From the NCBI GenBank assembly GCA_965230295.1, contig OZ246001.1, positions 992,001 through 1,056,000 on the forward strand: DNA of 64,000 nucleotides, written 5' to 3'. Each line of letters starts with the position of its first letter. Within the stretch, counting starts at the first letter, position 1. A model generated the notes under the pieces. The model made no database searches. It was not told the origin of the DNA and worked only from the letters and a program-made list of their open reading frames with translations. This DNA comes from Marinicella sp. (lineage in GTDB: Bacteria > Pseudomonadota > Gammaproteobacteria > Xanthomonadales > Marinicellaceae). Of the stretch, positions 27,622 through 62,000 are shown piece after piece. Position numbers and translations under genes: made by a program.

Positions 27622-30600
27622 TCAAAACCCGTCACGAAAGATCAGATCATTACCAACCTCACAAACCACCATGACATCGGTGATGTCTTGGTTGCTGATG
27701 GTGCCACTTTCATTGCTGACCACACAGGGTTGGATGGGGTTGTTCGGTTGATCCAATACGGTCACGTCATAATCATCACCAACAGCTACCGGAGAGGAAA
27801 ACACAAAAGCACCATTGTCCATGAGGTTCAAGTCATCACCAGCGTTGTTCTGTAAGGTGATTTCATTGCCAAACAGAAGTCCCGTTAACTGACCACCCAC
27901 CAGGTATTCGGTCTGAAATTCAAAAGGACCGATATCCACATCCATGCCCAGTTCACGAGTCATGCCAGCCAAGTCCAGAGGAATGCGTTCGGTCAAATCT
28001 GCATCACCATCGACATCAAAATCATCAGCAGGTAAATGATTAATATCGCCTGCATCGATCAAGGGCGAACCAAGCTGTAAGTTATAATCACCATTCATTT
28101 CATCACTGAACAGGGGATCAAATCCAGGATCTGAAGCATCCAATCCATTTTCAGCGGTCAGGTCCACACTTTTGATGAGGCTGTGACTGGTGGTCAACAC
28201 ATTCGCCGAGAATTCACTGGGCACAAAATTCACACCTCCATCATTGCTTATGAGGTTATCCCATAACAGGCTGTTTTGCATGTTAATATCTGTCGCAGCC
28301 ACACCGCCACCAGAAGATGAGGATGAGAAAGACAAAGCTGTATTGTTAACAACCGCACTGTTGATCAAATGAACAGATCCATTGTTGTTTCTCACACCAC
28401 CGCCTGATGCGCCGGATGATGAAAGTGAATCAGTAGCCGCTTGATTGGCATAAATCAAGCTATTGACCACATAGATCACGCCATCATTACTAAACAGCCC
28501 ACCTCCTTCTGCAATAAAGGATTCTGACCTGCTGCGGTTGTTATTAACTGTACTGTTAACCAAGGTGATGTCTCCGCTTGAAGTGACGATACCACCTCCG
28601 TTGGCGAAACTCGTTGACGCAAGGACTTCATTACCACTGAGTGTGGATTCAACCAAGGTGACGTTGCCGCTTACAGAATAAATACCACCCGATGCATTAC
28701 TTGACCCAAACACTGTGTTGTCAATGACTTGACTGTTGGCCACCATGATGTGCCCAGTTTGCGTATAGATCGCGCCACCAAATGCATCACCAGCATTGTT
28801 GGATGCGTTGTTGTCTCGTATGATCACCCGAAGCAGCCTTAAATCCCCAGTGGTCCGAATCCCGCCACCCTCACCATCTGAAAAATCGAAACCGTTTTGT
28901 AAAGTCAAACCTTCCAGATAAAGATTGTCCGCTGCATGTGTGGCGTTAATCACCCGTTGTCTGTTGGCCGTGATGCTCTCAAAAGCATCGATGATGGTGG
29001 GGTGGTTATCAATGTTTTGTGTGCCACCACCAGCTGGAAAACCGCCACGGATATTCAGTGGTTCATTAATCGTGATCTCATCGGTGATCATATAGCTGCC
29101 CTCTGCAACCAATATCGCACCATCAGACAAAGACACATCCACTGCGGGTTGGATGCTGTTAAAAGCATTGGGCCAATCGCAACCGGTTTGTGTGCCCGAT
29201 GCGGATAGATCCACATAAACAGTACTGTCAAATGGCGCTCCATTGCCCCATGACTTGGTTTCGGAGTCAGTGACGTCCACCTGCCATCCAAACAAAGTAT
29301 CGGTCTTGGTGATTTGGTAAGTATTGCCACAACGGTAGGTGTGGCTGGCATCGGGTCCAGCCAAAACCGTACCGTCACCCATGTCATATTCATGAGACTG
29401 GTCGATGGCATTTAAGAATGCCACCTGATTGTACATGCGGTCTGAAAGTATGGGACTGCTGTTGTTGGTCAAACTGACCATATGGCTGCCATCGTCCTGG
29501 GCTGGCGTCATGATGAAATCCGTGATCAAATCATAACTGACCAACGGCTCAAAGAGCGCATCCGCATCCAATGGCATACCACCAATGCTCACGTCAGAGC
29601 CGCGTAACCAGTTACCAGAAATATTGGCACCCGCCAGGAATTCGCCCCCGCCATCCGGCGGTATCGCCGTGTAATCATTGAGCACAAGACTCACATCGGT
29701 GGCACTGGGATTGACCACCACAATGACATAGGGCTGACTGACGGTGATCGAGGAGCTAAACACACCAGTCACTCGAATCTCATCCAACGTTCCACCACCC
29801 AAACCATGGGCCACGGACAGATTGGTTGTGGCCAATGGCGTGCCAGTAGGTAAAAATTCAGTATCCGCCAAATACAGTGACAGCTGCAAATTAACCGGTG
29901 GTCCTGCGGGTGCCGTTTTGAAGGCATAAAACTCCGCACCATACACTGTGATTGGTTGAGGCGCATTGAAGTACTGACTGATGGCTTCGGCCGAAGTGGC
30001 GTTGTTGATGATAAGGCTTTGCAAACCAGTGGCTTTGGCCAATGTATATTGCACCTGCTCGCATGTGCCTACCTGGGTGATGCTGACCGCATTACTGACA
30101 ACTGCACCCACACCACCATCCATGCCTGTAGTCCACAATGCGTCATTGATGATGCCGTGGTTGTTATTGGCTACATCAGTCAACACAGTCCCTGCCCCTT
30201 CATAAAAAGCATGGTAAGCCACCAAACCGGATTCTTGGCCCGTGAACAGATTGGCCTGGCCAGTACGCAACAAGTCATCCACTTCTGTTTGCGTGGATGG
30301 CGCTGTGTTCCAGATCCGCAGGGCCGCGATTTGGCCATCAAAAAATTCCGTGGCACCCGAATTTGACCCGATGTGGCCGTTGGAAGGGCTGGTTGCTGTT
30401 TGCATAGCACCATTGCTGGCTTTGTTGCCAAGTTCAACCCCATTGCGGTACAAACGCATGGCATTGGTTGGGTCATCAAACGTCGCCACGATGTGCACCC
30501 ATTGGCCATTGTAATCAGCGGCATTGATTGGCACATCCAGTTCCGTGTACCCGTCATCAGACGTTTCGATGCCAAAGGAGAGGATGGTGCCATTGTCTTG

Positions 30601-31659
30601 GAAGCCCAACAACATTCGATCAGAACCATTGTTTTCTTTGCGGAAAATCTCCTGAAAACCCACCGTGATGTCATCTGGCTGAATCCAGGCCTCGATGGTT
30701 AAACCATCAGAAAAATTAAAATCATTGCTGTGGGGAATCACCACATCATCATCCACCCCGTCAAAATCCAAAGCAAAACCGGGGTTGGCCGCGAATACAT
30801 GAAAATCCGCGGTTTCTCCGATCACACCGGTTTGAAACCCCAAGGCACTGCCCGTGCCGGTCACCGGACCGTCAACCACTGACAAATCGCCATCATTGCG
30901 TAGATAATAATCAAATCCCACCTCAGAACCCAGTAAGGCCAAGGCATTGTCTTGGGGGCAGGTGAGCGTGGCTTCACCCGTAAGTACCTGCATGGCAGGC
31001 ACCGGCACCGGAACCAACGGCTCAACTGAAATCTGTTGTGTGTTGGTCCCAGAACAACTTCCGTTACTTGTATCAAGCGTGACGGTATAATCTCCGGGGT
31101 CGGTGTATGTATGACTGGGGGATTGTGCGTTTGATGTGTTGCCATCTCCGAAGTCCCAGGACCATGCATTCATCAAAGGCATGGTGGTGTCTGTGAAATT
31201 CACCTGGGCACCCACAGCAACGGTAGTGGCCGAAACAGCAAAGTCCGTGTTGACCACGGTAACCGTTGTGTTCAATAGATCAATCAGATCATTGTCCCCT
31301 GGGACTTGTGGGTTGATTCTCACCACCACCGCATACGCCTGACCGAAATTTAAATTGGCAAGTTCAGAGAATGTATATGATTCTGTGTTGCCCGTGGTAT
31401 TCAGGGTGGTGGGGATAAAAACTTCTGGGAAGGAGAAATTTGCCCCACCATCGATTGAAAACTCCAAAGTGACTGGCAAGCCATTGAGATTGGTCACTCC
31501 GTTGTTAATCAGTTGAACAGTCACTGATTGTGGGCCAACATCGGACACACAACTGGCAGGGGCCAAAATTTGATTGATGTCGATGTCTTGTTGTGCACTG
31601 ACGATATCGGCAATCAAAACCATTGCCAACATCATGATGTTTTGTGTTATTTGTTTCAT
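27622..31659 (-). CDS. Large secreted protein: PKD, LamG/concanavalin-like, beta-helix/choice-of-anchor-Q-like and Ig-like domains, DLIFRDGF tail
   Basis: Start at MKQITQN (signal peptide); WSWDFGDG...PSHTY (PKD); ALDFDGVDD...WVHIVATF...LRIWN (LamG); LQLGSPLIDAG...VDIGPFE. Confidence 0.85.
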   Translation of the reverse strand: MKQITQNIMMLAMVLIADIVSAQQDIDINQILAPASCVSDVGPQSVTVQLINNGVTNLNGLPVTLEFSIDGGANFSFPEVFIPTTLNTTGNTESYTFSELANLNFGQAYAVVVRINPQVPGDNDLIDLLNTTVTVVNTDFAVSATTVAVGAQVNFTDTTMPLMNAWSWDFGDGNTSNAQSPSHTYTDPGDYTVTLDTSNGSCSGTNTQQISVEPLVPVPVPAMQVLTGEATLTCPQDNALALLGSEVGFDYYLRNDGDLSVVDGPVTGTGSALGFQTGVIGETADFHVFAANPGFALDFDGVDDDVVIPHSNDFNFSDGLTIEAWIQPDDITVGFQEIFRKENNGSDRMLLGFQDNGTILSFGIETSDDGYTELDVPINAADYNGQWVHIVATFDDPTNAMRLYRNGVELGNKASNGAMQTATSPSNGHIGSNSGATEFFDGQIAALRIWNTAPSTQTEVDDLLRTGQANLFTGQESGLVAYHAFYEGAGTVLTDVANNNHGIINDALWTTGMDGGVGAVVSNAVSITQVGTCEQVQYTLAKATGLQSLIINNATSAEAISQYFNAPQPITVYGAEFYAFKTAPAGPPVNLQLSLYLADTEFLPTGTPLATTNLSVAHGLGGGTLDEIRVTGVFSSSITVSQPYVIVVVNPSATDVSLVLNDYTAIPPDGGGEFLAGANISGNWLRGSDVSIGGMPLDADALFEPLVSYDLITDFIMTPAQDDGSHMVSLTNNSSPILSDRMYNQVAFLNAIDQSHEYDMGDGTVLAGPDASHTYRCGNTYQITKTDTLFGWQVDVTDSETKSWGNGAPFDSTVYVDLSASGTQTGCDWPNAFNSIQPAVDVSLSDGAILVAEGSYMITDEITINEPLNIRGGFPAGGGTQNIDNHPTIIDAFESITANRQRVINATHAADNLYLEGLTLQNGFDFSDGEGGGIRTTGDLRLLRVIIRDNNASNNAGDAFGGAIYTQTGHIMVANSQVIDNTVFGSSNASGGIYSVSGNVTLVESTLSGNEVLASTSFANGGGIVTSSGDITLVNSTVNNNRSRSESFIAEGGGLFSNDGVIYVVNSLIYANQAATDSLSSSGASGGGVRNNNGSVHLINSAVVNNTALSFSSSSSGGGVAATDINMQNSLLWDNLISNDGGVNFVPSEFSANVLTTSHSLIKSVDLTAENGLDASDPGFDPLFSDEMNGDYNLQLGSPLIDAGDINHLPADDFDVDGDADLTERIPLDLAGMTRELGMDVDIGPFEFQTEYLVGGQLTGLLFGNEITLQNNAGDDLNLMDNGAFVFSSPVAVGDDYDVTVLDQPNNPIQPCVVSNESGTISNQDITDVMVVCEVGNDLIFRDGF

Positions 31660-32154
31660 AAGTAAACCAGGATCACTCACATGGCTGCCACTCATTTCAC
31701 CTTCTCTTTGAAATGATGTGAGCGTTAATTGATCGACCTGTCTTGACTGCCTTCGATCGACACCAAATACCCCAATACCTTCCAGCATGACGTGATTTCT
31801 GCACAATCACAGGCATGGACCAAAGAACAATTCAAGACCACCCTCTCATATATTCTAAAACATGCACCCATCCCTTGCGACCATTAAATGGGTAATGTGC
31901 CGGTTGTTGGGGTGTTTTGATTGTTGGTATGGTTGCCATTGATTGAAATTCCCCAATTAGAGAAAATCTCATTCAGCGGCTGAATGTATAAAGCGTGCCG
32001 TAATGAGCCATCCAGTCCAAAGCCGGGGTGAGGGTGAGGATGATCATGGCTTGGGTCTCACAAGGACATTCCTTTAACAATTGATTTTAACATTTCATGG
32101 ATGGCTTAACTTAATAACTCACCCATCGCCGACTGAAGTCGACTTCCCATGGCA

Positions 32155-32619
32155 TCATGCCAAATCCCCAATCGGTAAATGCGAGGTGCGTTTCTTTTGT
32201 TGCATGGAGAAACTGGTGTTGATGGAGCGGATGGAAGGCAGCCGCAGGATTTTTTCATAGATCAGTTGGTTGTAATCATTCATGTCGCGAGCCACAATTT
32301 TTAACAAATAATCTGATTCACCGCTGGTGGCATGACATTCGAGAATTTCTGGCCATTGTTGAATGCCTTGATCAAATCGCTCGACAGTTTCCGGGTGGTG
32401 GTTATCCAAAGAAATTTGGGCAAAGGCGGTGATGTTCAATCCCAACATGTCCTGATCAACGATGGCGGTGTAGCCTTTAATCAAACCTTGCTTTTCTAAG
32501 GCGTCTACCCGCCGCCAACAAGGTGCTTGTGACAGCGACACTTGTTCAGCCAGATCTTTGTTGGTGATGCGGCCATCAAGTTGTAGGGCTTTTAAAATCT
32601 TTTTGTCATATGAATCCAT
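32155..32619 (-). CDS. Lrp/AsnC family transcriptional regulator
   Basis: MDSYDKKILKALQLDGRITNKDLAEQVSLSQAPCWRRV, ECHATSGESDYLLK; divergent from the 2-oxoacid dehydrogenase genes. Confidence 0.92.
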   Translation of the reverse strand: MDSYDKKILKALQLDGRITNKDLAEQVSLSQAPCWRRVDALEKQGLIKGYTAIVDQDMLGLNITAFAQISLDNHHPETVERFDQGIQQWPEILECHATSGESDYLLKIVARDMNDYNQLIYEKILRLPSIRSINTSFSMQQKKRTSHLPIGDLA

Positions 32620-32753
32620 GAACAACAATATAATTGCCTGATTTAATAATTTCAATATATTTAATTGCTTTGAATGGTTTTTTGCAGCAAATATCGAAAA
32701 CACATTTTAATCAAAATCAGAGATAATGTGCATCCCAAAATTCTGAGAGCCGC

Positions 32754-34865
32754 ATGCAGTTATTTAAAAACCAAGCAGAACATCCACAACAACCAGAGGC
32801 CGACAGCCCTTTTGATTGGCAAAAATTAGCCAAGGATTTATTGACTTCCAGAGCCCTGGATGACTTGGAAGAATTTGATTTGGTGAAGCAGAAAAAGGTG
32901 TTGTATCAATTCTCGGCACGCGGTCATGACATGGCACAAATCATGCTGGGCCAAATCATGAACCGCAAAAAAGATGCCGTTTCTGGTTATTACCGTTCCA
33001 GGCCATTGCTGCTGTCAATGGGCATCTCAGTGGAACAGTTCTTACAAGCGACCATGATGAAGCAAGGTGGATTTTCTAATGGACGTGACATCGGCGTGGT
33101 GTTCAACCAACCCAATGATGACGGCGCTTGCATACTGCCCATGTCAGGTGGCGTGGGTGCTCAATACACACCAGTGGCAGGCTGGGCGCAAGCCGTTGAA
33201 TACCACAGCGAAACTTTAAAGAATTCAGCATGGGATGATGCCATGGGCTTGGTACTGGGAGGTGATGGCTCGGTGGCAACCAACGGCTTTTGGTCGGCTT
33301 TAACCATGGCCACCACTTTGGAATTGCCGATGATGTTCTACATTGAAGACAATGGATATGGCATTTCTGTACCCTCCCATTTCCAAACACCTGGCGGCAA
33401 CATCGTTAAGAACCTGGCCTCATTCAAAGGCATCACCCTGCTCTCTGGTGACGGATCCAACCCTGAAGAAGCCGCTGAATTGATTGCTCAAGCCAACGAC
33501 ATCATCAGGACCGAACGCAAGCCTGTATTGCTCAGATTAACTGTCCCACGATTGAACGGCCATTCAGCTCAAGACACGCAAAGCTACAAAAGTGCCGATC
33601 GCATTGCTTTCGAGAAACAGCACGACCCCTTACCCAAACTCAAAAAATTCTTACTTACCAATGGACACATGGATGAAGCAGAATGGGATCAACTCGAACA
33701 TGAGGCCAAAGACCATGTCTATGCCGCCTACCAAAAAGTAGATCAGCAAGAACATGCCGATCCAGCGGGTATCGAATTACATGCTTTTGCCGAACAAGAT
33801 GAACAAGGCAACCCGATATTACAGGCACAAGGCGGGATCCATTTAGACAGCCCAATCTTTCCACCATCTTCCTCGGAAGTCATTGCCGAACCAGGCCGCA
33901 TCAACATGGTGACCGCCATTCGCAAAACCCTGGATTACGAGTTAACCCACAATGACAAAATGATGGTGTTTGGTGAGGATGTGGGTGCCAAAGGTGGGGT
34001 GCATGCCGTAACCCTGGGCCTGCAAGAAAAACACGGCGAAGCCAAAGTGTTTGACACCAGTTTATCTGAAGAAGGCATCATTGGTCGTTCAATTGGCTTG
34101 TCATTGGCAGGCTTGTTACCGGTACCAGAAATCCAATTCAGAAAGTACGCCGACCCCGCAGAAGAACAATTGAATGAAACCGGTTCCATGCGCTGGCGCA
34201 CCAACAACCGCTTTGCAGCACCGATGGTGGTCCGGATGGCGGGTGGTTACTTCGGTTGTGGTGACCCCTGGCACTCACAGTGTGCCGAAGTCAAATGGGT
34301 ACACGCCATCGGCTGGCAAGTGGCGATGCCTTCCAATGCAGAAGACGCGGTTGGCTTATTGCGTTATGCCTTGCGTAACAACAACCCCAGTATCTTTTTT
34401 GAGCACCGCAAGATGCTCGATCATATCTGGGCTCGCAGACCCTACCCTGGCGACCAATACATCATTCCATTTGGCCAGGGCAAAAAGTTATTCAGTGGTG
34501 ATCGTCTGACTGTGGTCAGCTGGGGTGGCATGGTGCACATGTGTCAAACAGCGATTGAAAAAACCGGTGTAGCCGCAGACTTGATTGACCTGAGAACCCT
34601 GCGACCCTGGGATAAGGACATGGTGCTTGAATCGGTAAAAAGAACCGGCCGCTGCTTGATTGTACATGAAGATAACCTGTCAGCCGGATTTGGTGCCGAG
34701 ATTGCTGCTGTGTTGGCCAAAGAAGCGTTCTTTTACTTGGATGCACCGATTGAAAGGTTGGCCACCGCTGATATTGGTAACCCGCACGATCCCAGATTGA
34801 TGGAACACGCTTTACCCAATCCGGACAGCATCGCCCAACGCATCATGGAGTTAGACCAAGCATGA
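32754..34865 (+). CDS. 2-oxoacid (probably branched-chain) dehydrogenase E1, fused alpha+beta
   Basis: GDGS...EDNGYGIS TPP motif; FGEDVG..GGV, FDTSLSE, EIQF, IDLRTL.PWD. Confidence 0.9.
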   Translation: MQLFKNQAEHPQQPEADSPFDWQKLAKDLLTSRALDDLEEFDLVKQKKVLYQFSARGHDMAQIMLGQIMNRKKDAVSGYYRSRPLLLSMGISVEQFLQATMMKQGGFSNGRDIGVVFNQPNDDGACILPMSGGVGAQYTPVAGWAQAVEYHSETLKNSAWDDAMGLVLGGDGSVATNGFWSALTMATTLELPMMFYIEDNGYGISVPSHFQTPGGNIVKNLASFKGITLLSGDGSNPEEAAELIAQANDIIRTERKPVLLRLTVPRLNGHSAQDTQSYKSADRIAFEKQHDPLPKLKKFLLTNGHMDEAEWDQLEHEAKDHVYAAYQKVDQQEHADPAGIELHAFAEQDEQGNPILQAQGGIHLDSPIFPPSSSEVIAEPGRINMVTAIRKTLDYELTHNDKMMVFGEDVGAKGGVHAVTLGLQEKHGEAKVFDTSLSEEGIIGRSIGLSLAGLLPVPEIQFRKYADPAEEQLNETGSMRWRTNNRFAAPMVVRMAGGYFGCGDPWHSQCAEVKWVHAIGWQVAMPSNAEDAVGLLRYALRNNNPSIFFEHRKMLDHIWARRPYPGDQYIIPFGQGKKLFSGDRLTVVSWGGMVHMCQTAIEKTGVAADLIDLRTLRPWDKDMVLESVKRTGRCLIVHEDNLSAGFGAEIAAVLAKEAFFYLDAPIERLATADIGNPHDPRLMEHALPNPDSIAQRIMELDQA

Positions 34866-36097: not shown

Positions 36098-36117
36098 AAT
36101 CAACACAGCCAACCCAC

Positions 36118-36146
36118 AAAAAAACCCGCTTTGTAGCGGGTTTTTT
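36118..36146. terminator. Bidirectional intrinsic terminator
   Basis: AAAAAAACCCGCT-TTGT-AGCGGGTTTTTT between convergent genes. Confidence 0.85.
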
Positions 36147-36169
36147 TACTTTTTAGCTGCGTTATTTGA

Positions 36170-37708: not shown

Positions 37709-37709
37709 C

Positions 37710-38312: not shown

Positions 38313-38313
38313 C

Positions 38314-49904: not shown

Positions 49905-50612
49905 CTAAGGCGTTGATGTGTCAAAAGTTTCCGCAAATATGACATCTGTAAGGATCCTCAAAATTCCTGTTTGGCTGGTATGTGCAGGGTTGGCACAATG
50001 GTAAGGAACCTCACCTACCTCGTTGAATCGAACATAAAATTCCCAGGGAAAGCCGGTTGGATCGGTGTCTGTATTTTGCCCATCGCCTTCACAACCATCG
50101 GCACAAATCAAAGCGTCATCATCGGTGCGGAAATTGTGTTCACCTCCCTGATTATTGAAATAAACCACATCACCAGCTGTTATGGTCAAATCATCAGGAA
50201 CATAGGTGTTATCCACTTGTGCTGATATTTGATGGGTGGTCCCGGTACTGGGCGTTTGCACCACCACCGTTCCGACCATACCAAACTGAACATGTGGTTG
50301 GCATTCATAAGGAATGGTCTCAGGCACCCTGAATGTCACTTCAGCCACCCAAAGATCTGAAGATGGATTACCATTCCCACCATTAGCTTCACAGCCATTG
50401 GCACAACGAAACTTTCCCACTGCATAAACATTGTGGGCACCAGGTCCTTCATTCACCCATCGCACCGTATCGCCAGCCTCAATCACCACCGTTGCAGGAC
50501 TGAATGAGTTGTCTCTCACGGTGACGACATGGGTTCTGGCCATTGAAGTGCCAATCAGCAACAGCGTACTCAAAATGACCCAAATTAGACGATTGATGAT
50601 TACAGGTGACAT
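49905..50612 (-). CDS. Secreted double-cupredoxin protein with DVIFAETFD tail
   Basis: Domain 1 HNV...YECQPHVQFGM; domain 2 HNF...YHCANPAH; a C-x-x-G-C insertion in each domain. Confidence 0.85.
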   Translation of the reverse strand: MSPVIINRLIWVILSTLLLIGTSMARTHVVTVRDNSFSPATVVIEAGDTVRWVNEGPGAHNVYAVGKFRCANGCEANGGNGNPSSDLWVAEVTFRVPETIPYECQPHVQFGMVGTVVVQTPSTGTTHQISAQVDNTYVPDDLTITAGDVVYFNNQGGEHNFRTDDDALICADGCEGDGQNTDTDPTGFPWEFYVRFNEVGEVPYHCANPAHTSQTGILRILTDVIFAETFDTSTP

Positions 50613-50789: not shown

Positions 50790-52586
50790 ATGAACATATT
50801 CGCCAAAAAGTATTACGATGCAAGCCAAATAAAAAAAGCGCCCAAATCATATTCACCGATCAAAACGGATCACAGTAGGCAAAAAACTGCAGCCAAGGGG
50901 TTGTCATTATCCACCCATCAACCACAACTCAAAGGCACTTTGCCAACACCCAACCTGACCCACCGAATCATGAGCAAGATGGCTTTCGGGCCCAGTGATG
51001 CTGACACCAATCACATCAATTCACTACCAGGTGCCACTGAAATGGATCGAGTCCTGGCCTATATTGATGAACAGCTGGATCCTGCCAGCATAGATGACAG
51101 CGCTGTCGACACGATGCTAACCCAAGGGTTTGCCACTTTGAACAAAACCCAACAACAGTTGTTCCAGGAACACAACCACCTCCCGGATGGAGGCGACATC
51201 CCGTGGGATATACACATCTTACCTGGCAGAGAAACCAGTTACGCTGCATTCATCAGGGGCATCAACAGCAAACGTCAGTTGTTTGAAATGATGGCTGATT
51301 TTTGGCACAACCATTTCAACGTATACCTGGATGGAGACAATGTTCAACCGATGTTCGTGCATTATGACCGTGACGTCATCAGGCCCAATGCCCTGGGTAA
51401 CTTCCGAGACATGCTGTATGAAGTCACCCGATCTAACTGCATGCTTTCTTACTTGGGTAACGGCGTCAATGAACAATCCGCACCGAATGAAAACTTCGCC
51501 AGGGAACTGCTTGAACTTCACACCATCAGCGCCAAAAATTATTATGGCCACATGCCATGGCAAGATGTGCCTACTGATGGCCAAGGCAGACGCGTCGGTT
51601 ATGTGGAAGCAGATGTGGTTGAATTGGCGCGGGCCTTGACTGGTTGGTCTTTTTTTGGTGCCAGTTGGGAAGATTACGATTACTTATATAACCCACCCGT
51701 CAATATCAGCCTGGCTCCTACCGGGCTGTTTTTATTCAGACCTGACTGGCATGACCAAGGAGTCAAGCGGGTGATGGGTACTGACTTTTTTTATGACTCC
51801 AACGACGAAGAAAAAGACCTCAATGACATTTTAGACATGTTGGCTGAGCACCCGGCCACCGCTGAATTTTTGGCCACCAAGTTATGCAAAAGATTCATTG
51901 CAGATGAACCGCCTGCAAACATCGTAACTCAGGTTGCAGATGCCTTACACCAAAACTGGCAAGCCAGTGATCAAATCAAACAGGCCATGGAGGTGTTACT
52001 GAAATCTACAGCGTTTTTAAACACCTGGGGCGAGAAAATCAAACGTCCTTTTGAACGCACCATTGCTGCCATGAGACAGATTGAGTATGGTTTCGATTTC
52101 AACCCCACCAATGAATACTCCAGCTGGCATCATTGGGGGTTTCAAGACTCTGGTCAGCCACCATTTGGCTGGACCTCTCCTGATGGTTATCCTGACTTCA
52201 AGTCTCATTGGTTGGGCGCATCCAGTAACATGTCGACCTGGAAATTCATTCAATGGATCAGCCAATTCAGAGATGGTAATAATAATGACGACCCTTTCAA
52301 CAACATCTTAAACATAACAGCCAGTGGCATTCCAAACGCCAATGACCGCACAGCCAATAACATCGTCAATTTTTGGTATGAGAAGGCTTTGGGTTTTCCA
52401 CCTGAAACAGTCGTCCAGGACAAGTTGGCTGAATTCATGTCATATGATGACAACACCAATCCTGTTGGTACCGATCGTGATACGCCAATAGATATCTATC
52501 AAAATAACTGGCCCGGGTATAACACCGAACGTTTGTTTGCCGTGGTATCAACCATCTTTCTGACAGCTGATTTCAGCTACCGATAA
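50790..52586 (+). CDS. DUF1800 family protein (second paralogue)
   Basis: FWHNHFNV, NENFARELLELHT, ARALTGW, HPATA, KIKRP, PDGYPD. Confidence 0.9.
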   Translation: MNIFAKKYYDASQIKKAPKSYSPIKTDHSRQKTAAKGLSLSTHQPQLKGTLPTPNLTHRIMSKMAFGPSDADTNHINSLPGATEMDRVLAYIDEQLDPASIDDSAVDTMLTQGFATLNKTQQQLFQEHNHLPDGGDIPWDIHILPGRETSYAAFIRGINSKRQLFEMMADFWHNHFNVYLDGDNVQPMFVHYDRDVIRPNALGNFRDMLYEVTRSNCMLSYLGNGVNEQSAPNENFARELLELHTISAKNYYGHMPWQDVPTDGQGRRVGYVEADVVELARALTGWSFFGASWEDYDYLYNPPVNISLAPTGLFLFRPDWHDQGVKRVMGTDFFYDSNDEEKDLNDILDMLAEHPATAEFLATKLCKRFIADEPPANIVTQVADALHQNWQASDQIKQAMEVLLKSTAFLNTWGEKIKRPFERTIAAMRQIEYGFDFNPTNEYSSWHHWGFQDSGQPPFGWTSPDGYPDFKSHWLGASSNMSTWKFIQWISQFRDGNNNDDPFNNILNITASGIPNANDRTANNIVNFWYEKALGFPPETVVQDKLAEFMSYDDNTNPVGTDRDTPIDIYQNNWPGYNTERLFAVVSTIFLTADFSYR

Positions 52587-52596
52587 GGAGACTAAC

Positions 52597-53925
52597 ATGA
52601 AAAAAATCAACAGAAGAAATTTCCTCAAAGGTACCGGATTGGTCAGTGTCGCAGGATTGGGAGGCCTACAACTTGGCTTCGCCAACACCCTGTTGAAAGG
52701 TGGTTCGGGTGGCTCTGGTCGCGACTTATTGGTCTACGTCTTCCTGAATGGCGGCATGGACGGATTGAATATGGTGCCACCACGCTCAGGCCCAGATTAC
52801 ACCCAATACCGGGACGTTTTACGACCAAATCTACACATACCCAATTCAATGTCGTTGCCACTGAATGGTCAAAACAGTTTTGGCATGCACCCATCCGCAA
52901 CCGGTCTGGCAAACCTGTTCAATGACGACAAAATGGCCATCATCCATGCCACAGGCTTGGTAGAAGCCAACCGGTCACATTTTGAGGCGACCCGATTTAT
53001 GGAATTGGGTTCACAAAGCAGTACATCGTTAGGCTCAGGTTGGTTAACCCGCTACTTTAACTCATCCCTTCATACACCTGATGATGCCGTGATGCCATCG
53101 ATAGTGCCCTCCTATAACAACACCGATGCCGTTCTGGGTGACCCCACAGCTTTGGTGATGGCCAACCCTCAGGAGTTCAGCTTATCCGATGGCCATTGGG
53201 CATGGGAAGACACCATGCAAGATATCCTGACTCAAGTCAGTAACAACCCAACCACTTTAGAACAATTGGTGGCGAATCAAACCTTGAACGCCTCAGCCAT
53301 CATCCAAGCGATCGATTGGGGCAATTACGTGCCGGGCAATAACGCAGTTTACCCTGAAAGCTTTTTCGGCGAACAGTTGAGGACGGTGGCCCAATTGTTC
53401 AAGAATGATGTTGATCTAGAAGTGGCCTATGTACCAACAGGTGGTTGGGACACGCACACCGGTCAAGGCACAGGCACCAGTGGTCAATTTGCTGACTTAG
53501 CCGGCAATTTATCCGATGGGCTTTATGCCTTGTATCAAGACCTGACTGCCTCACACAACGGCAGATTCACCATCGTTGTTCAGTCAGAGTTTGGTCGCAG
53601 GGCTTATGAGAACAGTGACATCAGTACCGACCATGGCTATGGCAACCCGATGTTTGTCATTGGTGACGATGTCAATGGCGGCTTTTACGGCAGCTTCCCC
53701 GGCTTATCGCCACAACAATTGTTTGAAGGTGACGATGTTGATGTGACCGTAGACTATCGTGATGTGGTCAGTGAAGTGTTGATCAAGCGCCAACAAAACA
53801 GGTTCTTGGGTTATATTTTCCCCAACTACAGTGATTACACGCCGTTAGGTGTGGTCAACGGCTTGGACCTACCACCGATTTATGATGTCAATTATGACCC
53901 CATATTTGCCAGTGGCCTTGACTGA
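52597..53925 (+). CDS. DUF1501 family protein, Tat-exported, with DPIFASGLD tail
   Basis: INRRNFLK; GGMDGLN, RSHFEA, GGWDTH, SEFGRR, TDHG, DYRDV. Confidence 0.9.
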   Translation: MKKINRRNFLKGTGLVSVAGLGGLQLGFANTLLKGGSGGSGRDLLVYVFLNGGMDGLNMVPPRSGPDYTQYRDVLRPNLHIPNSMSLPLNGQNSFGMHPSATGLANLFNDDKMAIIHATGLVEANRSHFEATRFMELGSQSSTSLGSGWLTRYFNSSLHTPDDAVMPSIVPSYNNTDAVLGDPTALVMANPQEFSLSDGHWAWEDTMQDILTQVSNNPTTLEQLVANQTLNASAIIQAIDWGNYVPGNNAVYPESFFGEQLRTVAQLFKNDVDLEVAYVPTGGWDTHTGQGTGTSGQFADLAGNLSDGLYALYQDLTASHNGRFTIVVQSEFGRRAYENSDISTDHGYGNPMFVIGDDVNGGFYGSFPGLSPQQLFEGDDVDVTVDYRDVVSEVLIKRQQNRFLGYIFPNYSDYTPLGVVNGLDLPPIYDVNYDPIFASGLD

Positions 53926-53927
53926 CT

Positions 53928-54800: not shown

Positions 54801-54847
54801 ATAGGCTGAAATTACGGTTAACTGATATCAGATGTAAGGGCAAAAGC

Positions 54848-55051
54848 TCAAGCATCAATATCTGGGATCAACATATTTTCATAACAAATCAACATGTCTT
54901 TGATCAATAACTTGCGTTTTTTCAGGCGTTTAATTTTCAACTCATCCACCTCACCTGAATTGATCAACACCCCAATGATCTCATCGAGCTCCCGGTGCTC
55001 GTTTTCTAGTTCTGTCATGCGATGAACAATTTCACTTTGACTTAATGTCAT
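54848..55051 (-). CDS. DUF465/YdcH family small coiled-coil protein
   Basis: EHRELDE.I...RLKKRKLLIKD...IPDIDA. Confidence 0.85.
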   Translation of the reverse strand: MTLSQSEIVHRMTELENEHRELDEIIGVLINSGEVDELKIKRLKKRKLLIKDMLICYENMLIPDIDA

Positions 55052-55154
55052 GTAATTTCTGAAATAATGATTGATTGTTAGAAAATTTTACCCTATCGCT
55101 CACCACATTTCTCGGTAAATCATCAATATGCTTAAAGACAACAAAAAAATCTAA
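55050..55154 (+). repeat. Duplicate of the ttcA upstream region and first 8 codons (MLKDNKKI*)
   Basis: Direct repeat of 57433-57533 with scattered mismatches. Confidence 0.88.
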
Positions 55155-55226
55155 AACTTGACCACAAACTCAGACACAGAATGGCCGCAACATGAAAGGC
55201 ACTGCTTAATGGCTCATCTAACAATC

Positions 55227-56918
55227 TCATAATGCTTCAATATAATCAAAAAAGGGGTCAACACCATTCATGAAATCATTGTATGTTGGGGCAGTTAAAA
55301 CAACATCAGGCACTAAGTGGTCAGGATCCCCACTGACTGTCTCAAACCTTCGCGTCGAATATTGCACCATTGTCGTTGAATTGTTTAATCTGAAATTCCT
55401 GACTTCTCCAAAATGATTCGGTTTGCCCCCAGTAGGCAGACCAACCAACTGAGCTTGGGTTGTTTGGTCAAACTGTATGGCATTCAACAAGCCCGATGAA
55501 AAAGTTCCTTGGCTAATAATGACAAACAACCGGTTTGGATCATTAAAAGGAGAATTGGATGCCGCAAAAGTAGAAATCCAATTGCTTAACAGAGCCGAGT
55601 TGCCTCCTGTATTACTGCGCAAGTCGACTACAATTTTATTGGGTTGCAGATTGAAAGCTGTGTTTGATAACCGATTCAGAAAATCATTAAAGGGGTCATT
55701 TGATGATTCTACAGCTTGGTTATAGGCAAAATAGAGAATGTCAGAATTTTGAAGGTATGTAAACCAGTAGTTTGCTTCATTTTGTAAATACAGAGGTACA
55801 GGGATATTCAATTCAGAATACACTGAAAACAATTCAGTCATTTGACCAGAGTCCACCGATTTAACCACATGATCAGTTGCAACTCCAAACCGATCGATAA
55901 CTTCGAAACTCGCTTCAGTGGAATCACTTATGACATTCAAATATTCAAGGACTTTGGGGATGAGCATGTAACTCATTGAACGGTACTGCAACCAGGCTGA
56001 ATTTTCATGTGAAATAACCCGCCCCAATTGCTGTTCTATAACTTCAAGATCAACCCCGTTAATGGATTGAATCCTGCTGCCTAAAAGCGACCGGTATTCT
56101 CCTGTCGACTGACTGACAATCAATCCTGTATCAATGCGACTGAGCACCAAGGGAAAACGTTTGCTGTCATCAATCAATACATTGGTATGAGAATCTCCAA
56201 TTAAGGCCACAAGCTCCGAGAAGGCCACATCAATCAATTCGTCAGGCAAAGCATTCAGCTGATTGGCAAGCATGAAAGTTCTGGACTCAAACTCATCTTG
56301 CTGAATCTGATTGAATGGCTCTGGGTGTAAATCAATCAGTTCTGAAGTCATCTGGTTCAGGTCTTCGCTGTTCTTGAGCAATTCTTGAGTACAATTTAAT
56401 GTAGCAATTGAAGTCAATCGAGTAATCGGGTGTGAGCCGGCATCAAACCCTTCTATTTCCGGGAACCAACTTAATGTTCCATCATTACAATCTTCAAACG
56501 TCAATGTGACCCGGCCCCATTCCTGAATGACTACCGACTGTGGCGGCGGCATACTTGGGAAAAAGCCTCCTTCTGTTAAGTATGCTGTTAATTCAATGGT
56601 GTTTTGCTGAACACCACCCAGCCCTGTTAGCCAATATTGTTTCCCTTCATTGTCATATAAAAACCAGGCTGCAAGTATCCTGTTATCATCTAAAAATTCA
56701 ATAAAAATTCCTTGGCCTGAATTATCTGGATCGAAATAAGCACCACTCCAGGTCTGATTCAATAACGGGACTGGATCAGTTTTGATCATGGTGTCAGCAC
56801 GACAATCCAACTCTGAACCAATACAAGGATCACTGGTTAAGTTTGATAGTGCAGGTAAAGCCCAGATAAGCAAGGCCAGACCCCATTTAATGTTTGTGAT
56901 TTTATACATAATCATCAC
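55227..56918 (-). CDS. S41-family peptidase-like protein with N-terminal GQG/WF.Y domain
   Basis: WSGAYFDPDNSGQG...AWFLY; GDSHT, VVDLRSNTGG, TFSSG, GLPTGG. Confidence 0.75.
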   Translation of the reverse strand: MMIMYKITNIKWGLALLIWALPALSNLTSDPCIGSELDCRADTMIKTDPVPLLNQTWSGAYFDPDNSGQGIFIEFLDDNRILAAWFLYDNEGKQYWLTGLGGVQQNTIELTAYLTEGGFFPSMPPPQSVVIQEWGRVTLTFEDCNDGTLSWFPEIEGFDAGSHPITRLTSIATLNCTQELLKNSEDLNQMTSELIDLHPEPFNQIQQDEFESRTFMLANQLNALPDELIDVAFSELVALIGDSHTNVLIDDSKRFPLVLSRIDTGLIVSQSTGEYRSLLGSRIQSINGVDLEVIEQQLGRVISHENSAWLQYRSMSYMLIPKVLEYLNVISDSTEASFEVIDRFGVATDHVVKSVDSGQMTELFSVYSELNIPVPLYLQNEANYWFTYLQNSDILYFAYNQAVESSNDPFNDFLNRLSNTAFNLQPNKIVVDLRSNTGGNSALLSNWISTFAASNSPFNDPNRLFVIISQGTFSSGLLNAIQFDQTTQAQLVGLPTGGKPNHFGEVRNFRLNNSTTMVQYSTRRFETVSGDPDHLVPDVVLTAPTYNDFMNGVDPFFDYIEAL

Positions 56919-57432
56919 CTCTCAAAAAAGCCAACACTAACCAAGACGAATATTCAAAAGTGTCTAAAACCGCATGAGGTTTTCCGTCAAGACCCAAGCA
57001 ATCATTGTAAAAAATGTACCCATTAATCTTGAATATTTTGCTCTGTTTTTTTCATTCTTCTTGCGACACTTTCGGCCCATATCTCGTCTTATTTAGTATG
57101 AATCGTACCATTTGTATCTAATAATCATGACCAAAACAATGAATAATTTCAATACAATTATTTAAATACTCACCATTCACTGGTAATTATTTCATGCCAA
57201 AGTGGATTACAAAGTCAATCAGGATTAAGACACATGACTCCAGATTTATGGATGGAAGACACCAAACACCACACTCAGACATGAAACACGAACTTGAGGT
57301 CAAATAAGAGTTAGAGGATGCTGGTTTTTTTGTGCAACAAAAAAGAAGGCATTTCTGACCACTCTCCAGAATGGAGCCCCAAGAACATTCCTTCAGTTGA
57401 GATGAAGTCACTCCAATCATGATACTTTTGTG

Positions 57433-57533
57433 ATGTATTTTTGAAATAATGATTGATTGTTAGAAAACTTTACCCTATCGTTCACCACATTCCTCGGTAA
57501 ATCGTTAATATGCTTAAAGACAACAGCAAAATC
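57433..57533 (+). repeat. ttcA upstream region and 5' end (second copy of the direct repeat)
   Basis: GAAATAATGATTGATTGTTAGAAAA...TATGCTTAAAGACAAA/CAG shared with 55050-55151. Confidence 0.88.
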
Positions 57534-58319
57534 AACCAACTTGAGCATAAGCTCAGGCGTCAAATGGCCAAAGCCTCTGGTGATTTTGGCTTGTTGGAAG
57601 CCGGTGATCGCATCATGGTTTGTTTGTCTGGTGGCAAAGATTCCTACGCGATGTTATCGCTGTTGCAATTGATTCAGAAAAAAGCCCCTTTTAAGTTTGA
57701 TTTGCTGGCAGTTAACTTGGACCAGAAACAACCTGGGTTTCCTGAACATGTTCTGCCTGACTACCTGGCAACCCAAAACATCGAACATAAAATCATTGAA
57801 GAAGACACCTATTCGATCGTCAAAGAAATCATTCCTGAAGGCAAAACCACCTGTGGATTGTGTTCCAGATTGCGGCGCGGCATCCTATATCGTGTGGCCG
57901 ATGAACTGAACTGCAACAAGATCGCTTTGGGCCACCACCAGGATGACATGGTCGAAACCTTGTTTTTGAACATGTTTTTCGGTGCCAAGATGAAAACCAT
58001 GCCACCCAAGCTGCTCAGTGATGACGGCCAACATGTGGTCATCAGGCCCATGGCCTACATCAGGGAAAAAGACCTCATCAGCTATGCCGAGTACAAAGCC
58101 TACCCGATCATCCCTTGTAACCTGTGTGGTTCCCAAGAAAACCTGCAACGTCAGGCCATCAAGCACATGTTACAGCAATGGGACCAGATCAACCCCGGGC
58201 GGGTAGACAACATTGCCAAAGCGATGTGTCACATCACCCCTTCTCATATGTGTGATCCAGAGCTGTTTGATTTTAAAGGTTTGTCACAAGAACATTTCTT
58301 AAAACTGATTAAAAACTAA
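57510..58319 (+). CDS. ttcA: tRNA 2-thiocytidine(32) synthetase TtcA
   Basis: [30 protein letters not shown]. Confidence 0.96.
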
Positions 58320-59021
58320 ATGAGAACAAAACCAATTAATTCATATCTTACTGGTCTATTAGCTATTCTATTGACTTCCGTTTCTGCAAACGCCCAGGAA
58401 GACACGGGTATCAATGAAGCACGCCACGATTCTTTTTGGCACGGGTTCAATGAAGGGTGTATTGGCAGGGATATTTATTGGGACGTGTTTTATTTTGACT
58501 ACGACACAAATTTATCGTACAGAAGTTTTACGGTTGGCATGAAACCCGATTCAAACAACGGTCCTTCATTCATTGCCAGACTAGATACTGGGCTTTCAGG
58601 ACAAACATTCGGTGAAACTAAGAACAATCCTGAGACTTTATTTCTGGCTTGGTCGTTGCCATATGCCACTTGCATTGTAAAAACAAACTTCCAGGCTTGT
58701 CCTCAAGCAAAACTGGCATACAACAAATTACAAAACACAAAATTGTCACTGAATGAAGATTTTGACAAAAGACCTGGTATGTTTGTCTTGCATTACACCA
58801 CTTTTAACATGCAGCAAAGAGATGGTTCAGGTCAATTCAATGACTGGGAAGTCACCTCTGGCGATACTGATTTGGAAGCTGCTATTTATGCGGTCGCAAA
58901 AGACACTCTTCAGTGCAGTCAAAAGGCTGTTGATGATTTATTCAAAAGATTAAAGATTGATGCGAATCATGGCAACTACAAAGCGCACAACAAACGGTTT
59001 CATATAAAACCACCCAACTGA
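58320..59021 (+). CDS. Secreted hypothetical protein
   Basis: Signal peptide (…SANA), 233 aa, directly after ttcA. Confidence 0.7.
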   Translation: MRTKPINSYLTGLLAILLTSVSANAQEDTGINEARHDSFWHGFNEGCIGRDIYWDVFYFDYDTNLSYRSFTVGMKPDSNNGPSFIARLDTGLSGQTFGETKNNPETLFLAWSLPYATCIVKTNFQACPQAKLAYNKLQNTKLSLNEDFDKRPGMFVLHYTTFNMQQRDGSGQFNDWEVTSGDTDLEAAIYAVAKDTLQCSQKAVDDLFKRLKIDANHGNYKAHNKRFHIKPPN

Positions 59022-59066
59022 ATCAGTCACTAAACGAAAGCCTCAAGACAATCATTGCTTAGAAGG

Positions 59067-62000
59067 TCATTGCGGTTCAAATCTGTCGACAAAAATCCCT
59101 TCGACAAAGGGGTAATAAATGCCCATCGTATCTAAATTGCGAGTGCCAATCCAACCACCCCAGACAATCATTTCAGACCCCGTCCATGTGGCTGAATGAA
59201 AGGTCCTGGCTTGGGGCACCCATTCAAGGTCAGTGGGCAGCCAGCGATCTGTACTCGGGTTGTAACTGCCACCGGTGTCGGAATTGCCATTGGTTAAACC
59301 ACCCCAAATGACCATTTCTTTCCCGGTCCAAATATTGGAATTGTAGTTTCTTGCTGTTGGCGCATTTGCCGTTGTCATGGTTGTCCATTCGTCAGTCATT
59401 GTGTTGTACTTGGCTCCTGTGTTTAATGAATCCTGATTGAGCCCTCCCCAAACCATCACTTCACCGTCAAACCAAATTAATTGGTGATGCCTTCTCGCTT
59501 CTGGCGCTCCTGCTGTGTTCATGCTGCGCCAACTGTCTGTGGTCGGGTCATAACGACCGCCCTCGTTGCTTATGACACCCGATAAGCTGCCACCCCAGAC
59601 CACCATTTCATTGTCGGTCCAGACGGCACCGTGATAAAACCTCCCGGCCGGTGCATCCAGGCTGTTGATGGCTTGCCATTGATCCAAAGTTGGGTCATAG
59701 GAACTGCCGGTGTTGAGTGCACCTTGCGCTGAAGAGCCGCCCCAGACAAGCATGTGTTCGCCGTTCCAAACAGCGGTGTGAAACCTTCTGGCAGTGGGAA
59801 CATTGTTTAATGACGTGGGTAACCAAATGTTGTTTAGTGGGTCATAACGCCCCCCTGTGTCTTCATAAGTATTCCATTGCGATCCGCCCCACACGATCAT
59901 TTCAGACCCGGTCCATATGGTGGTGTGCTCATACCTACCTGATGGTGCTTGATTGTTGGTTATTGAAACCCAGCGATCTGTTGCCAGTGAGTAAAGCCCA
60001 CCCGTATCCAGGTAAGAAGTGCCTTTACCACGACCACCCCAAACCAACAGATCATTACCCGTCCATACGGCTGAATGACTGCTTCTTGCTTCTATCGCAG
60101 TTACTGTGTTCGCGGTGATAGGTGTCCAACTGTCTTCTGATGGGTTGTATCGACCACCATCGTCATGGTGTAGCGGAAATGTATCAACTTGACCACCCCA
60201 AACAACCATTTCTACACCAGTCCACACCGCCGTATGATCCTCACGTCTGCCCGGTGCCTGGACAGTAGAAATTCCATTCCAATCATCTGAAACTGGGTTA
60301 TACCTTAAGCCCGAATTCAATATGGTGTAGTTACAGCCTGGGTTATTGGGGATATCAAAACATATGGCACCACCCCACAGAATCAGTTCTTCACCGGTCC
60401 AAATCATCGAATAATTTTTTCTGGAATACGGTTCATTGATTTCCTCACTTATTTGCCAGGTGTCATCCAAAGGATCATAGATGTGTAACCGTGTGTCGAA
60501 TCCAGGACCTCCCCCGCCATAAACCATCATAACATCATCTGCCCATATGGCACCATGGTTATTTCTGGAGGTGATCGGGTTGTTGGCAATTTCAACCCAG
60601 GAATCTGTGCTGGGGTTGTAACGAGCGCCTGAATCAAGGTAACTGGTGACCACCCCATTAACCCGACTCATGCCACCCCACACAATCATGTCTTCTCCCG
60701 TCCACACTGCGGTGTGGAAATGTCTGGGAAGAGGACTGTAGCTTAGCGATGTTGTCTTCCATGTGTCACTCACAGGATCATAAATTCCACCCGTGTTGGC
60801 GGACTCAGACCCGTTTTCAGGAAGTCGCCCTCCCCAGACGATCATTTCATTTCCAGTCCAAACGGTGGTGTGTTGGTTACGTACTTCAGGCGCATTGACT
60901 GCTGACATTTCGCGCCATGTCTTGTGCAAAGGGTTATAACGTTTTCCTGTGTTGTTGACTTGATTACTGATTCCTCCCCATATCAACATTTCAGTGCCTG
61001 TCCACACAGCACTGTGTAAAAACCGTCCCGTTGGCGCATTCTCCATGGTGATCATTTCCCAAGAGTCGCTGGCTGGGCTGTATATACCGCCGGTATTGTT
61101 CAGCTCGTAATCAAAACCACCCCAAATGATCATTTCAGAGCCCGTCCATAGGGCTGAGTGCGCATACCTAGCAGTGGGTTGTTTGGGTGGTTCCCAACGG
61201 TTGCTGATCGATGAATAGTCGGCTTTTTTTGTGGCTTTGCTGTCAATTGCAGTCAATACCAAACTTGACTTAAAACTGGGTAAGGCAATGGGAAAATCTT
61301 GCAGGTTTAACCGTGCCATCCAACTTTCCAGGGATTGCTTTGGCCAAATTAACGATTGGCTGTGAATGGCCTTATCAGTCTTTTGGGTTAACTTTGTGTA
61401 GCTGAATCCTGACTGACTTTCTTCCAACAATGGCCGCTCATTCAGCTTCTCAAACATTCGCTTGAAGTCTGCAGGGCCCAGCTCAATTGTTGCGCCAAGG
61501 TCATATTTACTTTTGTGTTTTGCTTGATCACTGCTTAACAAATAGGTAACTTCACGGGTAACCACATCAGCAGATAATCCCATTGATGTGTCTAAATATT
61601 CATACAACTCATCGGTGGCTCTGTTTTTTAAATCATGATGTATCTCTTCATTGCTGTAATAGCTTTCATTAAGTAGCGAGCTCACCAAATAAGGCCTCGA
61701 CAAACACAAAGCAACTGTCTCAGGGTGATTATCAAGCGTTTGGTAGATTTGCTTCAAAGCATCGGCATCTTTGGTGTTGCGAGACATCCGGTCAATATCA
61801 GCTTGCATCAAGACTGAATTGATTTCAATGCCGAAAACATCAGCCAGAACATGTTGTTTCTTTAAACTCAATAGGGTTTGATGGTGCAGTTCCTGCTCAT
61901 CAAAAACTTCATCAAAGTGTGGTTTTTTTCCATTTTGTTTAGGCCACATTGTGTTTTGCCATTGCAACTTTTTAAGTTGAGTTTGACAATCAACCAAACT

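Follow-up and report, generated by a model that had tools for sequence, protein, structure and literature searches.

A nine-residue C-terminal tail on exported proteins of Marinicella sp., probably an address label for the cell surface or the outside

The stretch analysed here (the window) comprises 64,000 nucleotides (genome positions 992001-1056000) of a Marinicella sp. genome of 4,008,074 bp, which forms a single contig with a G+C content of 44%. Four non-homologous proteins encoded in it end in the same short motif, for which a first-pass annotation had proposed a role as a modular sorting or anchoring tag. This tail, with the consensus D-[LVI]-I-F-x-[DNS]-[GD]-F-[ED]-stop, was found on more than one hundred proteins of the genome rather than the four that had been listed, and a longer homologous form was present in another phylum. 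We regard the tail as a probable, hitherto undescribed address label that directs proteins to the cell surface or out of the cell.

Tail-bearing proteins in the window

The genes and tails concerned are given below in window coordinates.

1..3606, minus strand: N-terminal part of a fifth tagged protein (1612 aa, GEVED domain)
6251..7465, minus strand: DUF1501 paralogue without tail (ends GVFNSNS), untagged internal control
27622..31806, minus strand: cargo gene P0001, PKD/LamG/beta-helix protein (listed open reading frame, ORF, of 1394 aa; Pfam PKD and Laminin_G_3)
27622..27648, minus strand: tail of P0001, DLIFRDGF and stop, seen in the translation; the usual final E/D is missing
49905..50612, minus strand: cargo gene P0002, double cupredoxin of 235 aa with a Sec signal
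49905..49946, minus strand: tail of P0002, DVIFAETFDTSTP and stop, a degenerate copy with a 5-residue extension
50790..52586, plus strand: 598-aa gene adjoining P0003, ends TADFSYR, no tail
52597..53925, plus strand: cargo gene P0003, DUF1501 protein with a Tat signal
53896..53925, plus strand: tail of P0003, DPIFASGLD and stop, an F-to-L variant
59067..62114, minus strand: cargo gene P0004, Kelch beta-propellers, 1015 aa
59067..59102, minus strand: tail of P0004, EGIFVDRFEPQ and stop, on the Kelch protein

All four tails were present as the first-pass annotation had described them, on proteins with different domains (PKD with LamG, double cupredoxin, DUF1501 and Kelch), and its attribution of export signals to the four also held. 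P0003 carried a Tat signal (TIGR01409, 18.7 bits for a cut-off of 16.7), and Sec-type N-termini were visible in P0001, P0002 and P0004. The Sec-type signal of P0001 follows a likely true start at M50 (window position 31659; MKQITQNIMMLAMVLIADIVSAQQ), and residues 1240-1298 of this protein gave a weak choice-of-anchor Q match (NF041518, 22.2 bits for a cut-off of 25). The DUF1501 paralogue at 6251-7465 indeed lacked the tail, and the fifth tagged protein ends in DVIFANGFE and stop at genome position 990768, 1.2 kb left of the window. The copies on P0002 and P0003 are degenerate variants, since their orthologues end in IFxNGFE and DPIFASGF[DE], respectively. The 598-aa gene at 50790..52586, which we take to be the usual DUF1800 partner of the DUF1501 gene, grouped with two other ORFs, one of which adjoins the third DUF1501 gene.

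Enrichment, conservation and distribution of the tail

In a crude gene set of 3239 ORFs (at least 100 aa, overlaps resolved greedily by length, 90% of the genome covered), 113 had an IF...F ending at most 10 residues before the stop, for about 4 expected from composition; elsewhere in proteins IF...F occurred 125 times, at background level (about 152 expected in total). Among these 113 tails, the position two before I was D in 89 and the one just before I was L, V or I in 75, while IF-x was followed by D, N or S in 103 and then by G or D in 85, before the last F. E or D came after this F in 93 tails, and exactly one residue followed it in 62; the stop lay directly behind the [ED] position in 65, and 1-10 extra residues extended beyond it in 48. 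The core motif IF.[DNSTGEH][GDSNTR]F was found in the last 17 residues of 106 of the 3239 ORFs and only 0-2 times in any one of ten internal windows of equal length used as controls, an approximately 100-fold C-terminal enrichment. Strict and relaxed versions of the motif gave 60 and 135 ORFs, respectively (0-1 and 1-5 in the internal controls), and reversed tails gave 0 strict, 0 core and 3 relaxed matches. Roughly 106-135 of the 3239 ORFs, or about 3-4% of this crude set, thus bear the tail. Stop-codon usage behind the tails looked ordinary. A DNA-level origin of the tail, as a repeat or recombination site, is unlikely because its codons vary among copies and shift to GC-rich synonyms in high-GC relatives.

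Tail carriers were predominantly exported proteins. Under a signal-peptide heuristic, which is crude and over-calls, 95 of the 113 carriers scored positive, as did 1045 of the remaining 3126 ORFs (Fisher p = 1.5e-27, odds ratio 10.5). Visual inspection showed a Sec or Tat signal in the majority of the 18 carriers that failed, and three or four of them appear to be chance matches in membrane proteins. A genome-wide count, which the first-pass annotation had proposed as a check, showed the motif enriched both at C-termini and in signal-peptide proteins. With a slightly wider definition, 122 carriers fell into 75 single-linkage BLAST clusters after masking of the tail, the largest having 14, 8 and 7 members. 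Pfam was run on 65 of these 122 carriers, taken from the 20 most tail-rich 20-kb stretches, a choice that favours clustered paralogues. The families found included FG-GAP (13 carriers), DUF285 (7), CotH with LTD, peptidases M14, M28, M36, S8 and M12B, GDSL lipase, arylsulfotransferase, GSDH, LamG, GEVED, Calx-beta, DUF11, LRR, Kelch, cupredoxin and DUF1501, among others, and no Pfam family was assigned to 18 of the 65. Such a domain repertoire is typical of type IX secretion system (T9SS) or PEP-CTERM cargo.

Two arrays of FG-GAP/DUF285 paralogues (genome 3803983-3839387 and 3016023-3061952) were almost entirely tagged, and in one FG-GAP group the tail was extended by C-[INM] (GFECI, GFDCN, GFGCM). 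Gene pairs encoding an extracytoplasmic function (ECF) sigma factor and a Ser/Thr kinase-TPR protein recur in the genome (e.g. 1157202-1160583, 2290581-2293972, 2520369-2523807 and 3244198-3247427), and ten Ser/Thr kinase paralogues neighbour tagged genes, a possible sign that the tagged exoproteins are regulated by a system of their own.

Most copies of the motif were terminal. With stricter matching, 91 of 102 copies in this genome were C-terminal (at most 10 residues behind the motif) and three more lay 11-21 residues from the end, the others being six at internal domain boundaries, one after a lipoprotein signal and one apparent chance match. Among 30 copies inspected in five genomes of the same order, 21 were C-terminal (at most 5 residues behind), 3 stood right behind a signal peptide, 5 lay between domains and 1 could not be placed. 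The description of the motif as a C-terminal tail in the first-pass annotation is thus accurate for the majority of copies, and too narrow if taken as strictly terminal. In three large proteins (genome 1421560-1424421, 1502239-1506363 and 3172793-3178705), the internal motif was followed by a common domain (about 88 aa) whose terminal stretch, DxDGDGxxN, is thrombospondin-type-3-like. The only copy directly behind a signal peptide in this genome, DLIFATGFE, belongs to a 2340-aa lipoprotein (genome 1551084-1558106) that has, by eye, the look of an SpvB/RHS-type toxin-complex protein.

The tail was conserved among orthologues of the window proteins. It ended all 68 orthologues of the cupredoxin P0002 (P0126-P0193); a regular expression flagged 58 of 77 listed matches, and about ten FF/TF variants were recognised by eye. 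For P0003, whose closest orthologues come from Marinicella species and from Marinicellaceae/Lysobacterales metagenome-assembled genomes (MAGs), 48 of 79 loci were inspected: 31 of 32 Marinicellaceae-type orthologues ended in D[P..][IL][FY]xxxF[DE]-stop, and 14 of 16 distant, Lysobacteraceae-type orthologues had a basic-rich extension instead of the tail.

The distribution among relatives was assessed with the strict DNA pattern D-x-I-F-x-[DN]-[GDE]-F-[DE]-stop and its reverse as control. This genome had 27 matches (reversed control 0). Among 40 relatives, the 24 other members of the same family had 5-48 apiece, five genomes from three other families of the order had 1-6, and eleven genomes of eight further families had zero; the reversed controls were 0 throughout. 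The pattern was also absent from all 400 other genomes drawn evenly across the class.

In two cargo families, the tail occupied the slot that other homologues fill with a known sorting signal. For the CotH+LTD carrier P0006 (573 aa, genome 3828579-3830300), 21 of the 119 homologues listed ended in the tail (about 571-615 aa and one 448-aa fragment; 59-79% identical), and at least 77 had a T9SS C-terminal domain straight behind the conserved VTFNAEN (counted with a YPNP regular expression after correction of one miscall, and with PF18962 from a precomputed Pfam column). Many of the latter were about 650 aa long, 55-63% identical and from Flavobacteriaceae or Saprospiraceae; the remaining homologues were truncated, or had T9SS domains missed by the regular expression. 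As the gene is 55-63% identical to Flavobacteriaceae genes, the comparison suggests a transfer between phyla with exchange of the sorting signal. In the choice-of-anchor-Q beta-helix family, the tail ended 43 of 43 close homologues, beginning 2-12 residues behind a closing GA[FY]E motif (found in 40 of the 43), and in 76 more distant matches its slot was taken by a PEP-CTERM-like or LPXTG-like anchor, by another domain or by a stop. Among metagenome proteins, two end in DGFETGDISGWSSAVP and DRIFADGFDSAAR, each followed by the stop.

AlphaFold2 models built from family alignments were obtained for two carriers, both with well-modelled bodies, and in both the tail is predicted to be a free, unstructured peptide. 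The CotH protein had a mean predicted local distance difference test score (pLDDT) of 83, with residues 561-573 below 50 and devoid of secondary structure. A cupredoxin orthologue had a mean pLDDT of 90.9, with an average of 68 over the last ten residues and 95-98 in the core, and showed no secondary structure beyond the strand at 215-221.

A longer form of 18 residues, F-x-D-G-F-E-[ST]-G-x4-W-x4-P-stop, was found in three genomes of the Acidobacteriota, on orthologues of the tagged cargo. A distant orthologue of P0003 (44% identity) in G439, a MAG recorded as Thermoanaerobaculales, ends in LFADDFESGDTGNWSAATP and stop, and this MAG had 85 sites encoding F-x-D-[GD]-F-E-[ST]-G (control 0). Of 34 distinct sites inspected, 29 were C-terminal, most with exactly ten residues behind the G and ending in W-x4-P-stop. 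The strict long-tail pattern occurred in 3 of 121 sampled Acidobacteriota genomes (47, 31 and 10 matches) and in 7 of 41 genomes around this one, all Marinicellaceae with one copy each, and in none of 250 other genomes from its own phylum. The copy of this genome lies at 3860455-3860511; the sole long-form tail in Marinicellaceae has a Cys before the final Pro.

Long and short forms tag the same kinds of protein. Fifteen long-tail ORFs of G439 had a BLAST match here, and the best match was a short-tail protein for 11 of them (background 122 of 3239 ORFs), with up to 52% identity over 473 residues; three others matched motif-bearing variants and one an untagged protein. Models named for choice-of-anchor J and Q, and for M36 peptidases that depend on myxosortase or rhombosortase, were also matched by cargo of G439. 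Neither the short nor the long tail was covered by any NCBIfam or Pfam model, and no published account of the motif was found in the literature.

Possible roles of the tail and candidate machinery

The enrichment of the tail at C-termini, its restriction to exported proteins, its conservation, its equivalence in position to known signals and its flexibility in the models were observed directly, and we infer that the tail directs localisation. The first-pass proposal of a modular sorting or anchoring tag, as opposed to a membrane anchor or a T9SS domain, is the reading that comparison supports best (75 exported clusters, conservation among orthologues, slot replacement, unstructured models); a machine for it was not found among six candidates, which failed or did not discriminate. 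We consider it moderately probable that the tail works as a portable sorting signal, short, linear and devoid of a membrane helix, which is recognised once the protein has left the cytoplasm by Sec or Tat; about half of this probability goes to a route linked to the type II secretion system (T2SS) and the rest to another, unrecognised reader.

According to this reading, the cargo would cross the inner membrane by Sec or Tat, with the tail of about nine residues (D-[LVI]-I-F-x-[DN]-[GD]-F-[ED]) hanging flexibly off its last domain as a peptide with neither hydrophobic helix nor fold. A receptor in the periplasm or at the outer membrane would then read the tail, and would either send the folded cargo over the outer membrane or hold it on the cell surface. 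One of two T2SS would be the most likely route, perhaps via the PDZ domain of GspC, and the T2SS is our leading guess for the machine behind the tail. The Marinicella tail would be a short form of the 18-residue Acidobacteriota tail. Since the architecture of the tag is unlike that of known signals and its longer form occurs in another phylum, the reader is probably either a machine not yet known or a known system in a new use.

Three secretins were encoded in the genome, namely PilQ and those of an Xps-type T2SS and of a second T2SS. The loci of the two systems are (genome coordinates):

857-868 kb: Xps-type T2SS cluster, xpsE to xpsD
654-660 kb: second T2SS, gspCDEF
2608-2611 kb: second T2SS, gspG-K
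2630-2632 kb: second T2SS, gspLMN

Co-folding of the GspC PDZ domain with cupredoxin domain 2 carrying the tail was classed as 'weak support' (score 0.44; best of three controls 0.00), with at least 66% contact agreement between runs, a partner pLDDT of at least 83 and no interface reported. Of 80 solved complexes, 58 passed the mark used, as did 2 of 110 mismatched pairs; with scores of 0.60 or less, it was passed by only 7 of the 80 and by both of these mismatches. Compared with a canonical PDZ ligand, whose free C-terminus has a hydrophobic last residue that sits in the PDZ groove, the tails mostly end in E or D, and 48 of 113 are extended.

A number of points weigh against a sorting tag read by such a machine. 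Among the candidates compared across genomes, no machine was found whose distribution tracks the tail, the candidates being GspC, GspD-like secretins, the 'PYYT' family, DUF4915 and the DUF1302/DUF1329/MMPL cluster. GspC with a PDZ domain was present in 36 of 41 genomes, including tail-negative families, and GspD-like secretins in 5 of 5 Acidobacteriota genomes tested (three with and two without the tail), so that neither discriminates. The 'PYYT' family occurred in 39 of 41 genomes of the order, tail-negative ones included. DUF4915/TIGR03032 was not found in four tail-positive genomes (G015, G023, G026 and G037; 98-100% complete) and was present in the tail-negative families f4, f7 and f9. 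A DUF1302/DUF1329/BNR/MMPL cluster was present in most tail-negative families and in the tail-negative G440, and was not found in the tail-positive G444. As for the co-folding result, the prediction tool itself states that passes in this score band are wrong in more cases than not, except where the guess was already likely. The tail-positive groups of the order may also form one clade, and in that case the phylogenetic profile has little power there. DUF1501 proteins and cupredoxins are usually taken as periplasmic, and the tail may have a role inside the periplasm. The copies behind signal peptides and between domains, judged from sequence, would fit a binding motif rather than a classical terminal signal. 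Finally, we know of no conserved linear signal for T2SS substrates in any organism.

The T9SS was also considered as machinery, and neither SprA (TIGR04189) nor PorV (NF033710) gave a match in this genome, in a search where the SprA control was positive in 0 of 14 control genomes and the PorV control only below the cut-off.

Several of the candidates have particular neighbourhoods. The 'PYYT' proteins are exported (about 475 aa, signal peptide, N-terminus GEVLxYPYYTVNN), with 11 paralogues by BLAST and 12 matches by genome search (e.g. 233751-235193, 494636-496048, 855496-856917 and 2432853-2436953). One copy lies right behind the XpsD secretin and its small lipoprotein, and four are beside tagged genes. 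They had no Pfam or NCBIfam match, and a protein-cluster search with one paralogue returned only unnamed clusters. Three DUF4915/TIGR03032 paralogues stand beside tagged genes (genome 570623-572896, 988615-990657 just left of the window, and 3021874-3022914), one of which carries a fused Asp/Asn hydroxylase-like domain and another a fusion of TPR repeats with a piece of a family 9 glycosyltransferase. Immediately upstream of gspL/gspM/gspN, at a distance of 28 bp, is a cluster of genes for a Lipase_bact_N lipoprotein, DUF1302, DUF1329, a BNR propeller and an MMPL transporter (genome 2621196-2632512), and the MMPL protein is 54% identical to one in G439, where the cluster abuts three tandem long-tail genes (G439:C19:5089-12432).

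A more far-reaching version of the sorting-tag reading, which we offer tentatively and hold to be rather unlikely, is that the tail is the first portable linear secretion signal taking folded periplasmic proteins over the proteobacterial outer membrane, read by the T2SS (GspC PDZ domain) or by an unrecognised sorting machine common to Marinicellaceae and the Acidobacteriota lineage, and possibly exchanged together with its cargo. In that case, the export of any Sec or Tat passenger would take no more than nine residues.

The main rival, which we judge unlikely, is surface retention without a role in translocation. The tail would then be a docking peptide that, after general export, binds an outer-membrane protein, a scaffold or lipopolysaccharide (LPS) non-covalently, possibly by adding a strand or hairpin to an acceptor domain, and would keep enzymes and adhesins on the cell. 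The presence of the motif at either end of proteins or between domains in sister families is what a binding motif would show, the tail is flexible in both AlphaFold2 models, and the long form is similar to the beta-hairpin with which a LamG-like domain begins (in L087, a domain of about 200 aa starts with IFADGFETGDTSAWTT and ends in FYLDDFES). Against this, no acceptor protein was found, and retention leaves unexplained why the tail stands exactly in the place of a secretion-competent T9SS domain in a gene common with Flavobacteriia, a point tempered by the fact that the T9SS domain serves anchoring as well.

It is improbable that the tail is a processing or maturation site, or a linker, at which a protease cuts at or after GFE, the genes ending there encoding an already-cut form. 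Internal copies are indeed found at domain boundaries, with Pro-rich linkers behind them (GFE-APVV, GFE-PAPD, GFD-PSAP), and the 48 tails with 1-10 residues past [ED] could be trimmed; but the 65 tails that stop right at [ED] leave nothing to remove, and with nothing to cut the strong conservation of all nine positions is hard to explain. The [DN]-G-F core is reminiscent of the sequences that plant Asx ligases recognise, and a fitting legumain-type (C13) peptidase was not found in the two Marinicellaceae genomes searched, this one (G000) and G024.

A structural remnant without sorting role, that is the leftover edge beta-strand of a lost LamG-like domain or a cap strand of the preceding domain, is very improbable: the tail does resemble both edge strands of the LamG-like domain in L087, but it stands behind 75 unrelated clusters, is not packed on the body in the two AlphaFold2 models, and is under selection, as its retention in the 68 cupredoxin and 31 of 32 inspected DUF1501 orthologues indicates. 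Modification of the tail (Asp/Asn hydroxylation or glycosylation) by the DUF4915/TIGR03032 fusion proteins is barely credible, since the location of 3 of 3 paralogues within three genes of tagged genes is offset by the distribution of the family given above and by the lack of a signal peptide at their printed N-termini.

For the sorting tag, the precedents are LPXTG, PEP-CTERM, GlyGly-CTERM and the T9SS domain, each of which led to a dedicated machine. To our knowledge, how the T2SS chooses proteins for export is a long-standing open question, and it would become directly testable with a nine-residue peptide if the tag is read by this system. The tag also gives a list, readable from genomes, of the likely exoproteome of Marinicellaceae and relatives, and is a very small candidate export tag for biotechnology.

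Comparison with known sorting systems

Like the C-terminal signal of type I secretion systems (T1SS), the tail is C-terminal and has no membrane helix. The T1SS signal is uncleaved and often acidic and hydrophobic at the extreme end, and T1SS substrates have no N-terminal signal peptide, whereas tail carriers do (95 of 113 by the heuristic, with a Tat signal in P0003). The beta-signal of outer-membrane proteins inserted by the BAM complex ends a beta-barrel with an aromatic residue; behind the last F of the tail, by contrast, E or D stands in 93 of 113 cases, and the carriers belong to soluble-domain families. As in strand donation or peptide-tag docking (chaperone-usher, dockerin-cohesin and SpyTag-like systems), a short terminal peptide could by analogy complete an acceptor domain, although none was found for the tail. 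The likeness to the first strand of LamG/ConA-like domains is clearest in L087, where a jelly-roll follows the motif, but at most 10 residues follow in 91 of 102 copies here.

PEP-CTERM/exosortase, IPTL-CTERM/exosortase H, GlyGly-CTERM/rhombosortase and MYXO-CTERM are, like the tail, lineage-restricted, high-copy C-terminal tags on choice-of-anchor cargo, and distant homologues of tagged proteins carry PEP-CTERM-type anchors in the slot of the tail. PEP-CTERM-type signals consist of a motif, a transmembrane helix and a basic cluster; the tail has neither helix nor basic cluster and ends 0-10 residues behind the motif, acidic. A scan for a C-terminal helix with a basic end found about six proteins of PVPV type, a class separate from the tagged proteins. 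These IPTL-CTERM-like proteins (PVPV-type motif, hydrophobic helix, basic cluster) lie outside the window, and an exosortase H-associated membrane protein (NF041730, E = 4e-48) adjoins the Xps T2SS cluster.

Genome 3056-3868, 820214-821107, 982792-983415, 2285626-2286402, 2778439-2783760, 3946541-3948502 and 868007-868615: IPTL-CTERM-like proteins and XrtH-associated locus

With T2SS substrates, the tagged cargo shares Sec or Tat export and a presumably folded state, its enzyme types are classical T2SS substrates, and two T2SS gene sets are present in the genome; T2SS genes, however, also occur in relatives without the tail.

The first-pass annotation was right that the tail, with nine residues, no helix and no match to the T9SS C-terminal domain (CTD), is neither a transmembrane anchor nor such a domain. 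No PF18962/TIGR04183-type domain was detected on the four window proteins, the 65 carriers or C-terminal 100-aa pieces (E<=10). The T9SS CTD of Bacteroidota (PF18962, type A CTD) is folded and fills an extra 75-80 residues or so, whereas the tail is unstructured in the models and occurs also internally or behind a signal peptide. Both are nevertheless modular, both mark Sec-exported enzymes and adhesins in large number and variety, and in CotH+LTD orthologues that are 55-63% identical they stand in the same place.

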